Notes under the pieces: generated by a model | Told to the model about the DNA's origin: nothing | The model's input: the letters and a program-made list of their open reading frames with translations, nothing else | Databases searched by the model: none | Shown here: positions 9,522 through 46,310 of the stretch, piece by piece | Layout of the letters: each line of letters opens with the position of its first letter | Numbering within the stretch: the stretch's first letter is position 1 | From: Candidatus Iainarchaeum sp. | GTDB taxonomy: Archaea > Iainarchaeota > Iainarchaeia > Iainarchaeales > JAZDFD01 | Direction: 5' to 3' | Assembly: GCA_043808155.1 (NCBI GenBank) | Contig: JAZDFD010000001.1 | Location: 1 to 64,000 of the forward strand | Length of the DNA: 64,000 nucleotides | Translations under genes and position numbers: made by a program

Positions 9522-10205
9522 ATGAAAGCAAACATTGTAATGATTGAGCCTGAATACCCGGGAAATATAGGGCTTATATGCAGGGTAATGAAAAACTTCG
9601 GATTTTCAGAGCTAATTCTTGTGAATCCCCAAATTGACCATCTGTCAGGGGAAGCTTACGCGCGTGCAATGCATGCTTCAGATGTTCTGAAAAAAGCCAA
9701 AATAGTTAGTTCTTTGGAAGAGGCAATTTCAAAAAGTGAATACGCAGTGGCAACAACTGCAAAAATAACTAAAGGACACAAGTTATTCAGAACTCCTTTA
9801 ACAGCAAAAGAATTTGCAGATAAATTTTTAGAAGGTAATGCAAAAGTTGCAATTGTTTTGGGACGAGATTCTACAGGACTTACAAACTCAGAAATCAGAG
9901 CCTGCGATTTTGTTGTTCACATTCCCGCATCAAGACAATACTCTACACTTAATATTTCACATTCTGCAGCAGTTATTCTTTATGAGTTATTTCAGAAAAC
10001 AAGCAAGCGTGAATTTAAAACTGCAGACACTAAAAGCAGAAAATTACTTATTGATAAATTTGAGAAATTCATCAGAAACCAAAGTCACATCAAAAACAGA
10101 AAAAATCTGATGATCGCCTTTAAAGGCCTTGTTTCTCGTGCAATGATAACAGATAAGGAAGCTTCTTCTCTTATGAGTGCTTTTGATGATAAGAGCAACA
10201 AATAA
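9522..10205 (+). CDS. trmJ: TrmJ/LasT family SPOUT RNA methyltransferase
   Basis: PGNIGLICRVMKNFG, GRDSTGLTN and STLNISHS motifs. Confidence 0.9.
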   Translation: MKANIVMIEPEYPGNIGLICRVMKNFGFSELILVNPQIDHLSGEAYARAMHASDVLKKAKIVSSLEEAISKSEYAVATTAKITKGHKLFRTPLTAKEFADKFLEGNAKVAIVLGRDSTGLTNSEIRACDFVVHIPASRQYSTLNISHSAAVILYELFQKTSKREFKTADTKSRKLLIDKFEKFIRNQSHIKNRKNLMIAFKGLVSRAMITDKEASSLMSAFDDKSNK

Positions 10206-10243
10206 AAACATAAGCGCAACCCTTACATATGTGCAAACCCATC

Positions 10244-10369
10244 GCGAGCTAAAGCGAGCGTATGGGTTATAGCTCAAGGATATCGCCTTGGCGAGCTAAA
10301 GCGAGCTAGTGTCAGTGCAACTGACACGCGGACTCGCCGGCCGTTCGGCGAGCTCGAGGATATCGCCTT
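10244..10369 (+). repeat. Composite palindromic leader of tRNA-Trp (modules B and C)
   Basis: GTGTCAGT-GCA-ACTGACAC hairpin plus CTCGCCGGCCGTTCGGCGAG; 42 nt identical to the reverse complement of 15171-15212. Confidence 0.85.
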
Positions 10370-10611
10370 GGGGTCATAGTGTAACCTGGTATCACCACAG
10401 GCTCCAGAATTTTTATTTTTGGAGGCGGAGGGCATGTATTGTGCCCAATGACGAATAACAGGTAGGATGAGTCTGCTTTTGCAGGCAGTGACAAAAAATG
10501 TGAGTGCTTAAAGCACGAACAAGTGTCAGTGAAACTGACACGAATTCGCACGCGGAATTTGCCGCGTAGTGGAGTTACCTGTTAATCTGGGTTCAAATCC
10601 CGGTGACCCCA
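10370..10611 (+). tRNA. tRNA-Trp(CCA) with 169-nt intron (10408-10576)
   Basis: GGGGTCA/TGACCCC acceptor, ACAGG/CCTGT anticodon stem, CCA anticodon, BHB at 37/38, GTTCAAATC T-loop. Confidence 0.93.
10415..10494 (+). ncRNA. Intron-encoded box C/D guide RNA
   Basis: ATGACGA at 10448; guide TAACAGGT complementary to 3' exon ACCTGTTA; D-like ATGA at 10467 places D+5 on C39. Confidence 0.7.
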
Positions 10612-10710
10612 CATTTCTTTTTTAGAATATTAATGAGGTATTGAGCGAAATCCGCCAATGGGACATAGAGTGTGCAAAGAACTTTAAGTTAATTGTAATA
10701 TGTGTTAGTT

Positions 10711-11661
10711 ATGAACAAAAAATTTACAATTGGTATTCCTGCACATAATGAAGAAGAATCAATTGAAAGAACATTAAATAGTTTACTGAAAAGTAAAGTT
10801 CCCGCAGGTTACGAAAGAGAGATTATTGTTTGTGCGCATAATTGTCATGATAAAACAGCTGAAATAGTAAAACAGATTGCGAAAAAAGATAAAGAGGTAA
10901 AATTAATTGAACTCAGAACAACAGGAAAAAAAGAGGGGCGATTCAATCCATTAAATGAAATTAGGCGTGTCAGTAATTCAGAGATTATTATTTTTTGTGA
11001 CGCCGATGTGATAGTTGATAGCAGAGCCATAGGCAGACTTGTTTTAGATTTTGAAAAAATGCCACATATATTAGCAGCTTCAGGCGTATCGCGACCCACA
11101 GAAAGCAGAATTTTCATAAAACAAAAAGATCCAGCTAATATAATTACGTCTTTGAGAAAAAAACAAATACGAGAACCTGCTTTGCATGGTAGATTGTATG
11201 GAATAAGAACAAAATTAGTTCCGATATTTCCGCCATTAATGTTAGATGACCTTTTTATGTCTGCATGGGTAGGTAAAAACAGAATGCACATCGACCCAGA
11301 CGTAAAAGTATATTCCCGAAGCCCTCAAACAGTTGAAGACTATTATAAAAGACAGGTTTTGATGTACATAGCTGAACAAGAAATACTGGAAAATGCAGAA
11401 CGTTATGCTAAAGAGTACAGAGGAACTAAATCTGCGAGTTTGGATGATTTTATTAAATATGTGGAAGGTGTTGCTAAAAGCTACGAATTTGATCCTAAAA
11501 AAGTCCACAAGCCTCTGACTCAGGAAGAAACGTCTTTTGTTGAAGTTTATAAAATGCTGAGGGAAACAGCGAAAATGCATTCTCAGTGGGAACGTGACCC
11601 TCAGTGGGTTAAGACTCACAGTGCCAAATTGAAAAAAATAAATCCCAGTCACAGAAAATAA
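10711..11661 (+). CDS. Glycosyltransferase family 2
   Basis: IPAHNEE, FCDADV and DD motifs; basic C-terminus. Confidence 0.85.
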   Translation: MNKKFTIGIPAHNEEESIERTLNSLLKSKVPAGYEREIIVCAHNCHDKTAEIVKQIAKKDKEVKLIELRTTGKKEGRFNPLNEIRRVSNSEIIIFCDADVIVDSRAIGRLVLDFEKMPHILAASGVSRPTESRIFIKQKDPANIITSLRKKQIREPALHGRLYGIRTKLVPIFPPLMLDDLFMSAWVGKNRMHIDPDVKVYSRSPQTVEDYYKRQVLMYIAEQEILENAERYAKEYRGTKSASLDDFIKYVEGVAKSYEFDPKKVHKPLTQEETSFVEVYKMLRETAKMHSQWERDPQWVKTHSAKLKKINPSHRK

Positions 11662-43506: not shown

Positions 43507-44538
43507 ATGGATATTATGCCAACAACAAACTTGGAAAGACTCCGAAAACAGCTTATTTCTAAGGCTAAAAAACAGATATCGGAAAAGTATTCAGGAGATG
43601 ACATTCACATAATCAGAGCAGTGAATGTTCTTGAAGACCTTGATTTTATTTTTAATTTACTGAGTGAACATGCACGTGAATGGTATTCAGTGCATTTCCC
43701 TGAACTTAATTCACTTGTGAAAGATAATGAAACCTATCTGAAAATGATAAATGATTTGGGAACACGAGAAAATTTTACAGAATCAAAAATTGAACAGTAT
43801 GCAAAAGAAAAAAATATTTCAAAAATTGCAGAAAAAGCAAAATCCGGAATGGGTTCTGAAATCGGAGAAAAAGAAATGGGAGAAATTAATTCATTAGTGA
43901 AAAATGCACTTTCTCTGAAAAAGGAAAGAAATGCACTTTCTGCATTTATCGAAAAAGAGACTGCTACTTTAATGCCGAACTTTTCAGAACTTGCAGGTCC
44001 GATTTTAAGTGCAAAACTTCTTAATGAAGCAGGAAGTTTCAAAAAACTTGCAATGATGCCAAGTTCCACAATGCAATTATTGGGAGCGGAGAAAGCACTT
44101 TTCAGACATATTAAATCAGGTGCACGCCCTCCAAAATACGGACACTTATTTCAGCATCCTCTTGTAAAACAAATGACACCCTGGCAGAAGGGTGCTACTG
44201 CAAGAACTATTGCAGGAAAATTAAGTATGGCAATTAAGGAAGATTATTTTGGAGATAAGAAAATTGCAGAGGATTTGAAAAAAGATCTTGAAGTAAGACT
44301 TAAGGAAATTTCAGAAACTCACAAGAAAAAAGAACCAAAAGAAGGCTCCAGAACAGATTCACAAACATATTCAAAGCCAAGAAGCTATTCAGATAACTCA
44401 GGACCCCGACCATATTCAAAACCAAAACAATATTCAAAACCAAGAACATATTCAAATAAATCAGGTGCTAAACCATTCAAAACTCAGGGAAATAAATTTC
44501 GTAAACCATTCAAAAAGAAAAATACATTCGGAGCATAG
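43507..44538 (+). CDS. nop5: Nop5/Nop56 box C/D RNP protein
   Basis: REWYSVHFPEL, QLLGAEKALFRH and PKYG motifs. Confidence 0.96.
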   Translation: MDIMPTTNLERLRKQLISKAKKQISEKYSGDDIHIIRAVNVLEDLDFIFNLLSEHAREWYSVHFPELNSLVKDNETYLKMINDLGTRENFTESKIEQYAKEKNISKIAEKAKSGMGSEIGEKEMGEINSLVKNALSLKKERNALSAFIEKETATLMPNFSELAGPILSAKLLNEAGSFKKLAMMPSSTMQLLGAEKALFRHIKSGARPPKYGHLFQHPLVKQMTPWQKGATARTIAGKLSMAIKEDYFGDKKIAEDLKKDLEVRLKEISETHKKKEPKEGSRTDSQTYSKPRSYSDNSGPRPYSKPKQYSKPRTYSNKSGAKPFKTQGNKFRKPFKKKNTFGA

Positions 44539-44546
44539 GTGTTTTT

Positions 44547-45209
44547 TTGAAGGAGATTTTCCCTGGAATTTATCTTATCAATGGGAAGTTGGCTACTTTA
44601 AACTCAGTTCCCGGAAATAAAGTTTATGGTGAACAGTTAGTTTCAGTTAAAGATCAGGAATTTCGTATTTGGGACCCCTACAGATCAAAATTAGCAGCTG
44701 CGATTAAAAAAAATCTAAAAACTGTCCCTTTGAAAAAAGATTTCAAAGTTTTATATTTGGGGAGTGCAGAAGGTACAACTGTTTCTCATGTTGCTGAGAG
44801 TGTTGGTGATAAAGGGCTGGTTTTTGGTGTTGAGTTTAGTGAAAGAACTATGAGGAAATTTATTGACATCTGTGAATCGCGTTCAAATATAATTCCGATT
44901 TTAGCAGATGCTAACAAACCAGACTCATATTCGGAATATTTAGAAGGTCAGGGCATTGATTTGCTTTATCAGGATATTGCACAGAAAAATCAGGCAGAAA
45001 TTTTCAATAAAAATGCAAAAATGTTTCTGAAAAAAGGCTCTTTTGGAATGATTGCAATCAAAGCGCGTTCCATAAGCCAGAAAAAAAATATAAAAGAAAT
45101 ATTTGACACAGAGATTGCTGAAATTGAAAAAGAATTTAAAATAATTGAAAGTGTTCCTTTAGCTCCATTTGAGAAAGAACATTTATTTGTTGTTTGCCAA
45201 AAAAAGTAA
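44547..45209 (+). CDS. flpA: Fibrillarin-like 2'-O-methyltransferase
   Basis: WDPYRSKLAA, VLYLGSAEGTTVSH and YQDIAQ motifs. Confidence 0.96.
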   Translation: MKEIFPGIYLINGKLATLNSVPGNKVYGEQLVSVKDQEFRIWDPYRSKLAAAIKKNLKTVPLKKDFKVLYLGSAEGTTVSHVAESVGDKGLVFGVEFSERTMRKFIDICESRSNIIPILADANKPDSYSEYLEGQGIDLLYQDIAQKNQAEIFNKNAKMFLKKGSFGMIAIKARSISQKKNIKEIFDTEIAEIEKEFKIIESVPLAPFEKEHLFVVCQKK

Positions 45210-45859: not shown

Positions 45860-45860
45860 T

Positions 45861-46001
45861 GGGCCTGTGGCGCAACGGATAGCGCAGCTGCCTCCTAACG
45901 GACAGATCCGTTAACGATCTGTATGTGCGGGGTTTTCAACCCCGCGATAATAATACGTGGGAGCGAGCAGAAGGTTGAGAGTTCGATTCTCTCCGGGCCC
46001 G
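45861..46001 (+). tRNA. tRNA-Arg(CCT) with 68-nt intron (45898-45965)
   Basis: GGGCCTG/CGGGCCC acceptor; CT-CCT-A then intron; GGAG-CG^A BHB half; GTTCGATTC T-loop. Confidence 0.9.
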
Positions 46002-46027
46002 ATATTCATTTTTTGTAATTTTAGAAA

Positions 46028-46310
46028 TATTACTGCACTGTTGTGCAAAACAATAGTGCACATATCGCACTAGCCGGGCGTTCGGCTTTCGATTCTCTCC
46101 GGGCCCGCCTTTTTAAAAAAAGGCAGGTTGCAACTTAAACCAATGAGGTTTAAGTGCACACTGAAACCAAAGTTTCAGTTGTGCCAAAAAGGCAAATCCT
46201 TTGGGATTTGCACATCTATTTTTTCAAAACAACTTTTATTAACAACCGAGCCCAAGCGAGATGTGCCACTGCAAGTGGCACTCGTACTAGCCGGACGTGA
46301 CGGCTTAAGC
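46028..46310 (+). repeat. Palindrome cluster with displaced tRNA-Arg 3' end
   Basis: Module A at 46028-46064, module C, TTCGATTCTCTCCGGGCCCG at 46088-46107 equals 45982-46001, further hairpins, B+C at 46263-46304. Confidence 0.8.

Follow-up and report, generated by a model that had tools for sequence, protein, structure and literature searches.

The tRNA-Trp gene at 10370-10612 of the window, by which we mean the whole 64,000-nt stretch of DNA analysed, is probably a working gene whose intron is built in two layers: an old box C/D-like guide and a young structured repeat unit consisting of hairpin modules A and B followed by a pseudoknot. The gene model, the geometry of the motifs, the complementarity of the guide to the exon, the membership of the unit in a repeat family, the covariation of its stems and its absence from related Trp introns form the firm part of this reading. 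The old layer, ~99 nt in all (10408-10498 plus 10569-10576), would be an archaeal tRNA-Trp guide intron in which two hairpin-closed K-turn-like motifs flank a 12-nt spacer predicted to pair with the 3' splice junction and tRNA positions 38-45. By the fifth-base rule, C39 would be the nucleotide 2'-O-methylated by a complex of L7Ae, Nop5 and fibrillarin, and a second antisense element would lie on the anticodon loop with its register off by one. The young layer (~10500-10568) would be one complete A-B-pseudoknot unit of the family, and it probably arrived by insertion or duplication at the DNA level. As the unit follows the guide's A-rich tail and precedes the 3' strand of the bulge-helix-bulge, it would leave guide, splice motif and exons intact and would itself be discarded at splicing. 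The features are collected in Table 1.

Table 1. Features of the tRNA-Trp gene, its leader and its intron, in window coordinates.
Feature	Position	Strand	Basis
Another B hairpin, located in the gene's own 5' leader	10309..10327	+	Sequence match to 10523-10541
tRNA-Trp(CCA) 5' exon, positions 1-37	10370..10407	+	ARAGORN with introns
Intron at the canonical 37/38 site, 169 nt	10408..10576	+	ARAGORN with introns; drawable bulge-helix-bulge
Anticodon-loop antisense element, pairing with 10402-10409	10417..10424	+	Duplex in the minimum-free-energy fold
K-turn-like motif A	10426..10454	+	Boxes read from sequence; stem predicted by folding
Guide spacer, 12 nt	10455..10466	+	Nine consecutive Watson-Crick pairs with 10576-10584
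K-turn-like motif B, weaker than A	10467..10494	+	Boxes read from sequence; hairpin predicted by folding
Module A, hairpin closed by tandem G.A/A.G, GUGA-GUGC-UUAAA-GCAC-GAAC	10500..10520	+	Fold prediction; composite listing
Module B, 8-bp hairpin with GAA loop	10523..10541	+	Sequence match; covariance model
Interleaved double stem, pseudoknot-like, then UA	10542..10568	+	Interleaved-stem score 10.5; covariation; model match
tRNA-Trp 3' exon, positions 38-73	10577..10611	+	ARAGORN

ARAGORN, run with introns allowed, placed the intron after G37, exactly at the canonical site, and with the length and boundaries that had been proposed for it from the letters alone in the original prediction; the gene was missed by the default ARAGORN scan and by Rfam at the gathering score. 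Archaeal tRNA introns are given a range of 11-129 nt in a 2014 review (PMC4090602), and the longest intron among the tRNA-Trp genes of the relatives considered below measures 152 nt. The genome (G000) is a draft of 1.08 Mb in 35 contigs, 88% complete, and across these contigs ARAGORN called 45 tRNA genes, one of them for tRNA-Trp; since this is the sole Trp tRNA found in the genome, it has to work. Directly upstream of the gene lies a SpoU-family RNA methylase (PF00588, E=1e-29; window 9522-10205), which means that a protein methylase of this family neighbours an intron predicted to serve RNA-guided methylation.

The exon-intron borders form a 3-4-3 bulge-helix-bulge with a central helix of 4 bp (10402-10405/10571-10574), two bulges of 3 nt each (10406-10408 and 10575-10577) and an outer helix of 3 bp only (10409-10411/10568-10570), and when this motif was constrained together with the cloverleaf all 24 pairs were standard. 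The minimum-free-energy fold of the pre-tRNA reached -101.3 kcal/mol (z = -7.0; 0 of 200 shuffles were as low); it contains both guide-target duplexes, the intron being paired to the two exon ends. The conformer with cloverleaf and bulge-helix-bulge came to -80.2 kcal/mol, 21 kcal/mol above that minimum, and a rearrangement would therefore be needed before splicing. The products of the archaeal splicing endonuclease are joined by RtcB, and the genome encodes both EndA (PF01974, 96 bits, in a 180-aa frame) and RtcB (PF01139, 471 bits). Since the sole tRNA-Trp carries the intron and the splicing enzymes are encoded, the intron is presumably spliced out. The Pfam match of RtcB falls in two parts (model positions 1-52 and 49-426) within one 989-aa frame (G000:C28:41419-44226), which suggests that an intein or another insert may interrupt the protein.

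The first ~90 nt of the intron, overlooked by the original prediction, are a predicted box C/D-like guide. Motif A has the geometry of a K-turn, with a D'-like CGGA (10426-10429), a 5-bp stem-loop (10430-10446), a 3-nt bulge AAU, a C'-like AUGACGA (10448-10454) and two G.A pairs, and motif B is composed of a D-like AUGA (10467-10470), a 6-bp hairpin (10471-10486), a bulge AGU and a C-like GUGACAA (10488-10494). Measured against RUGAUGA and CUGA the boxes are degenerate (C' agrees at 6/7 positions, C at 5/7, D' and D at 3/4 each), and the GA dinucleotides required for sheared pairs are present in all four. The spacer agrees with a box C/D guide in its length, in its complementarity to the target, which reaches 92% between 10453-10464 and 10576-10587, and in the fifth-base rule, with the fifth base from the D-like box, G10462, paired with C39 (10578). 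For the anticodon-side element a manual count put C35, not C34, opposite the fifth base upstream of the D'-like box, so that targeting of C34 as in Haloferax was not found on this side. L7Ae, Nop5 and fibrillarin genes are all encoded in the genome, a strict pattern scan of which yielded 0 canonical C/D sRNAs. A cmscan of 10200-10700 at E<=10 returned no ribozyme family and no curated C/D family of Rfam; its sole match, a weak one to mascRNA, fell on the 3' exon. The resemblance of 10466-10484 to C12:1676-1694 was set aside as chance, the latter stretch reading as coding. The genes for Nop5 and fibrillarin are adjacent to each other at window 43630-45206, immediately upstream of tRNA-Arg(CCT).

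The same arrangement recurs among relatives. From 44 genomes of the same order we recovered tRNA-Trp genes, 35 of them intronless and nine with an intron of 22-152 nt, and in six of these nine introns a C-box-like motif is followed by perfect antisense (at least 8 nt) to positions 38-45. The six comprise five g56 genomes and G052, and the fifth-base register falls on C39 in all of them; with G000 counted in, seven of ten intron-bearing tRNA-Trp genes are thus of the guide type, spread over three families of the order. The Trp intron of G052 has the same D'-stem-C' layout as that of G000 with another stem sequence, and the fifth-base register of its anticodon-side element falls on C34.

The best-known guide intron of this kind is found in Haloferax volcanii, where, as summarised in passages of PMC3326292 and PMC4090602, a 105-nt Trp intron is a C/D RNA guiding Cm34 and Um39 (Clouet d'Orval 2001, Singh 2004) and, according to the former source, is stable as a circle. 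The intron described here is alike in residing at the same canonical site of the same tRNA, in an antisense element whose pairing brings the fifth base from the D-like box opposite position 39, in a second element on the anticodon loop, in guide duplexes that compete with the splicing fold, and in the presence of the C/D protein genes. It differs in that its boxes are degenerate, its anticodon-side guide is off by one, both of its K-turn-like motifs are hairpin-closed rather than formed by the intron ends, its host is a small DPANN-type archaeon, and it reaches 169 nt owing to the inserted unit. The guide part is a further member of the known tRNA-Trp guide introns, and it is the composite with a structured repeat, at 169 nt, that is new. 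If read correctly, it would add a reduced DPANN-type lineage, in which position 39 is the conserved target, to the known range of tRNA-Trp guide introns, so far the Euryarchaeota and, by some hints, Sulfolobus.

The repeat unit had been noticed in the original prediction as a segment at 10523-10569 of the intron, consisting of a hairpin with a near-identical copy upstream of the same tRNA and a C-variant hairpin ending just before the bulge-helix-bulge strand. Its positions proved exact: the hairpin GTGTCAGTGAAACTGACAC occupies 10523-10541, with the one-mismatch copy at 10309-10327, and the second hairpin is present as CGCGG (10551-10555) paired with CCGCG (10562-10566), a stem that stops one base short of the outer helix at 10568-10570, with the GGAG strand (10571-10574) next. 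The segment itself is thus present as claimed and only its extent needed revision, the unit being ~67-70 nt rather than 47 once module A is added. This module is joined to B via 'AA', and the same junction is found in four other copies in the genome. A listing of A-then-B composites gave 30 candidates in the genome, of which 13 were chosen by eye as clear, the Trp intron among them. A-type hairpins alone were weakly enriched (141 versus 75-97 in shuffles), and therefore only the composites are informative; a GC-island screen and a loose hairpin screen were too permissive for use.

With up to three mismatches the 19-nt hairpin occurs genome-wide at four loci only (C1:10309, C1:10523, C20:7441 and C24:70138), and 100 dinucleotide-preserving shuffles of the window gave 0 chance matches to it. 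At C20:7441 and C24:70138 the hairpins carry paired changes (GTGCCAG..CTGGCAC) that keep the stem, and by BLAST 10522-10568 was 89% alike to C20:7440-7486 (47 nt) and 84% alike to C24:70137-70179 (43 nt). The A-B-C-D block of the tRNA-Trp leader around 10309-10327 recurs upstream of tRNA-Pro(TGG), 96% alike over 52 nt. In the Trp intron the two interleaved stems pair 10542-10547 with 10555-10560 (S1) and the CGCGG with the CCGCG already given (S2), and an interleaved-stem score of at least 9 was reached by 29 of 95 candidate hairpins versus 2.5% of shuffled tails. The pairing scheme was examined in 21 aligned copies, drawn from this genome and from others and excluding both window copies: 91.7% of cells pair versus 77.2% in shuffles and 33-50% in slid controls, and 11 of 16 pairs have changed on both sides, a figure that 0 of 500 shuffles reach. 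Both S1 and S2 covary in these 21 other copies.

A covariance model built from this alignment, R1, had its best match in the window at 10523-10569 (38.7 bits, E=5.8e-8, model positions 1-46), which bears out the earlier claim that the intron segment is a member of a repeat family, and the family's order of A, B and interleaved stems is kept. R1 found 20 matches in the genome at E<=0.1, among which the Trp intron copy scores mid-range. Subtracting ~10500-10568 from the intron leaves one of roughly 99 nt, in the same size class as other guide introns. Among Rfam families none was found for the 18-nt variant of the unit's hairpin, and a literature search of main texts found the variant in no paper.

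The unit appears to be an addition to the intron. The original prediction had proposed aligning Trp introns from relatives, and in that comparison none of the nine (0/9) holds the unit and their genomes are without an R1 match, even though six of the nine share the guide part; its reading of the repeat as an insertion is thereby supported. Within the order R1 had matches to the unit in 13 of 149 other genomes searched, with none found in f3 (0/16) or f5 (0/3), the families that have guide-type Trp introns, nor in G095, G122 or G022; the 18-nt hairpin variant, sought by pattern, was detected in 12 of 150 genomes, again with 0/16 in f3 and 0/3 in f5. We infer an empty ancestral site at the Trp intron, judging from distant introns and short contigs.

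The short contigs came from four public metagenome runs (X1-X4) of groundwater and cold-seep populations, which were mapped to 9800-11000 at 80% likeness and gave contigs of at most 299 nt. One contig from X2 (record 13), from another study, covers 10448-10611 with no gaps and nine differences, so a related population has the unit at this place and its join to the exon is no assembly artefact of this genome; contigs from X1 cover 10395-10493. That the composite arose by chimeric assembly through the repeat, or is a chance similarity, is accordingly hard to credit at all, despite the draft state of the genome and the tendency of repeats to break assemblies, given this independent contig across the junction, the X1 contigs, the lack of matches in shuffles and the E-value of the R1 match. 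Exact scans of a metagenome contig collection found 0 loci for the intron-exon junction and 0 for the C'-guide stretch, and the B1-plus-S1 pattern had 0 loci in a genome contig collection.

Other contigs differ from the window in their arrangement. In X2 and X3 one joint runs back from 10567 to 10448 across five other letters, and another leads from 10432 to 10516 across 25 other letters that are readable as another tandem-GA hairpin; these joints hint at an allele in which the anticodon-side element is separated from the C' box by a second unit, and joints in such short contigs often stem from repeats or other organisms. A contig from X4 has the terminal stem and the exon after unlike AT-rich sequence, without hairpin B, and another X4 contig, of cold-seep origin, joins 10276 to 10357 and is thus without 80 nt of the leader (10277-10356). 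Together these contigs are a hint that other alleles hold extra units or fewer of them, and that the unit turns over. In the window, an 80-nt stretch of the tRNA-Trp leader is enclosed by direct repeats of 21 nt (10271-10291 and 10351-10371, 95% alike).

The X2 and X3 contigs also bear on a different origin, because they place a unit directly upstream of the C' box. The unit could be the former 5'-leader module of a separate 3' half of tRNA-Trp that was later fused to its 5' half, and the B-pseudoknot module does serve as a leader directly before whole tRNAs, for example Ser-TGA and Ala-CGC. Yet the intron occupies the canonical site and has a complete bulge-helix-bulge, the guide that lies upstream of the unit is common to introns free of it, and no split tRNA was seen among the 45 ARAGORN tRNA genes of the 35 contigs, so that we consider such a remnant very improbable. 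We favour instead, as stated at the outset, the late arrival of a unit in an existing guide intron.

The direction of transfer may also be questioned, with the intron segment as the source from which the copies in tRNA flanks were derived. Transposition of introns among tRNA genes has been proposed in the Thermoproteales, where similar introns are found in different tRNAs (Fujishima et al. 2010, as cited in passages of PMC4090602 and PMC4033280), and family-like units are present in five of the 12 introns called in this genome (Trp, Arg-CCT, Tyr, Glu-TTC and a doubtful 'Pyl'), in both orientations. The intron copy, however, is one of ~20 model matches and scores in their middle, most units lie in leaders and trailers here and beside protein genes in other genomes, and the three closest copies, 84-89% alike, give no sign of the intron copy as ancestor; a reversed direction is therefore improbable. 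Our case resembles that of the Thermoproteales in that different tRNA genes of a single genome share related sequence in segments lost at splicing, which implies spread at the DNA level, and differs in that the unit is just part of an intron, occurs in leaders and trailers as often as in introns, folds into three modules that covary and points into exon edges. The growth of tRNA introns, whose mechanism has so far been argued mainly via sequence similarity in the Thermoproteales, would have a concrete case in a structured repeat that landed in the one functionless part of an intron.

Among the other introns with family-like units, that of tRNA-Arg(CCT) (45860-46002) matches R1 in antisense (45894-45940, minus strand, 15.4 bits, E=0.033), and a further R1 match lies downstream of this tRNA at 46263-46308. 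The 'tRNA-Pyl(CTA)' called by ARAGORN at G000:C20:3956-4108 has a family-like unit in its 75-nt intron, and the call itself looks doubtful.

In this genome many tRNA leaders carry family modules and many trailers carry inverted copies, and about half of the genome's tRNA genes have no unit. Of 35 composite units, 18 end between -3 and +9 nt from a tRNA exon edge, always pointing into the exon, with 12 at 5' edges in sense and six at 3' edges in antisense; the Trp intron unit obeys the same rule, ending 9 nt before the 3' exon. The original prediction saw in the intron a safe haven for the repeat, and the occurrence of units in leaders, trailers and introns fits this view, but their abutment on exon edges is too precise for passive tolerance alone.

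This precision would favour an action in cis, for which the unit would have been selected: a stable GC-rich fold beside the weak 3-bp outer helix, or beside mature tRNA ends, would nucleate local folding and define the cleavage site of EndA, RNase P or RNase Z. Such an action would agree with the inward-pointing pseudoknot ends, with S2 lying one base from the outer helix in the Trp intron, with the strong covariation of both stems, with the retention of the unit in the related population represented by the X2 contig, with the identity of the 18-nt hairpin (B2) across several families of the order, and with units that end 0-5 nt before ATG start codons in several other genomes. It is weakened by the 35 of 44 relatives that do without a Trp intron and the nine that have one without the unit, by the restriction of the unit to 13 of 149 other genomes, by the many tRNA genes here that lack it, by the two orientations in introns, in which the loops would differ as RNA, and by an RNase P RNA that is present and ordinary. 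We regard it as possible and rather unlikely. The idea that the units replace RNase P was rejected, since with that RNA present leader units are not needed for this purpose.

A passenger unit is accordingly the interpretation we prefer, with a cis-acting clamp ranked second. The patchy distribution, the two orientations in introns and the duplication of tRNA ends would suit a selfish element, and the covarying stems and the conserved hairpin would suit a functional fold; the identical hairpin in different families could equally reflect conserved function. The duplicated tRNA ends were seen downstream of tRNA-Asp (G000:C28:16960-17080, L122), where two unlike hairpin-pseudoknot units are arranged in tandem and a copy of GGGGGCG, the seven bases that end the tRNA, comes after each; GGGGGCG(TATA) flanks the units three times in this stretch, and the repeat reaches 11 nt twice. 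At the intron copy, inspection gave no convincing target-site duplication, the best candidate being GTGAG versus GTGGAG.

Two routes of spread were considered for the unit and rejected. No Y1 transposase of an IS200/IS605 element and no reverse transcriptase that could support retro-mobility were found in the genome, 88% complete as it is, and two TnpB frames are present whose ends are unrelated to the modules of the unit. Bacterial REP/BIME and pneumococcal BOX elements are short modular hairpin units that occur in varying combinations in non-coding DNA and have no gene of their own. The unit is likewise a short, modular, hairpin-forming element of non-coding DNA, and it differs from these elements in its archaeal host, in stems that covary between copies rather than being near-identical, in its strong placement at tRNA exon edges and in the lack of a RAYT-type (Y1) transposase among the genes found.

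A bolder and more speculative proposal, which we hold to be doubtful, is that the hairpin-plus-pseudoknot unit is not junk at all: its conserved, covarying fold would home to or mark the boundaries of mature RNAs, namely tRNA 5' and 3' ends, intron-exon junctions and, elsewhere, start codons. It would then be either a boundary-targeting mobile element not described before or a novel RNA end-definition signal, carried here inside a protein-bound circular intron, and related populations may have none, one or two units. That units always abut start codons was rejected, as the 12 non-tRNA units checked in G000 do not.

The excised intron would be expected to circularise with the repeat unit aboard, by analogy with known systems. 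Circular tRNA-Trp introns are documented, and stable, in Haloferax and Sulfolobus according to passages of PMC3326292, and stable circular tRNA introns of metazoans are described as tricRNAs in an excerpt of PMC4536317. As in the archaeal cases, endonuclease and RtcB should together give a circle, and it is the protein-bound Trp introns that are stable; unlike the known circles, the predicted one would add a structured repeat unit of ~70 nt. A search for RNA runs containing 10206-10640 listed none. Should the excised intron form a protein-bound circle, as other Trp introns do, the repeat would last as a stable RNA.

Beyond this genome, an identical 18-nt hairpin occurs in Candidatus Iainarchaeum (by MAG title), other DPANN-type archaea, Methanoperedens and Methanolliviera, whereas the seven bacterial matches are within the ~17 estimated by chance for a collection of this size. 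Methanoperedens accounts for seven loci and Methanolliviera for four (together L082, L084-L086, L098, L100, L103, L107, L109, L111 and L114), and in five Methanoperedens MAGs the hairpin lies at the same conserved locus. Units that end 0-2 nt before an ATG were seen at L106, L108, L110, L112 and L118, in Candidatus Iainarchaeum and other DPANN MAGs; the genes that follow such units include one that resembles a translation factor, in two MAGs, and another that two MAGs have in common. A tRNA-Asp from another family of the order (~1442-1619 of G101:C10, L076) is interrupted by an intron of 103 nt, in which the 18-nt hairpin and interleaved stems lie in sense.
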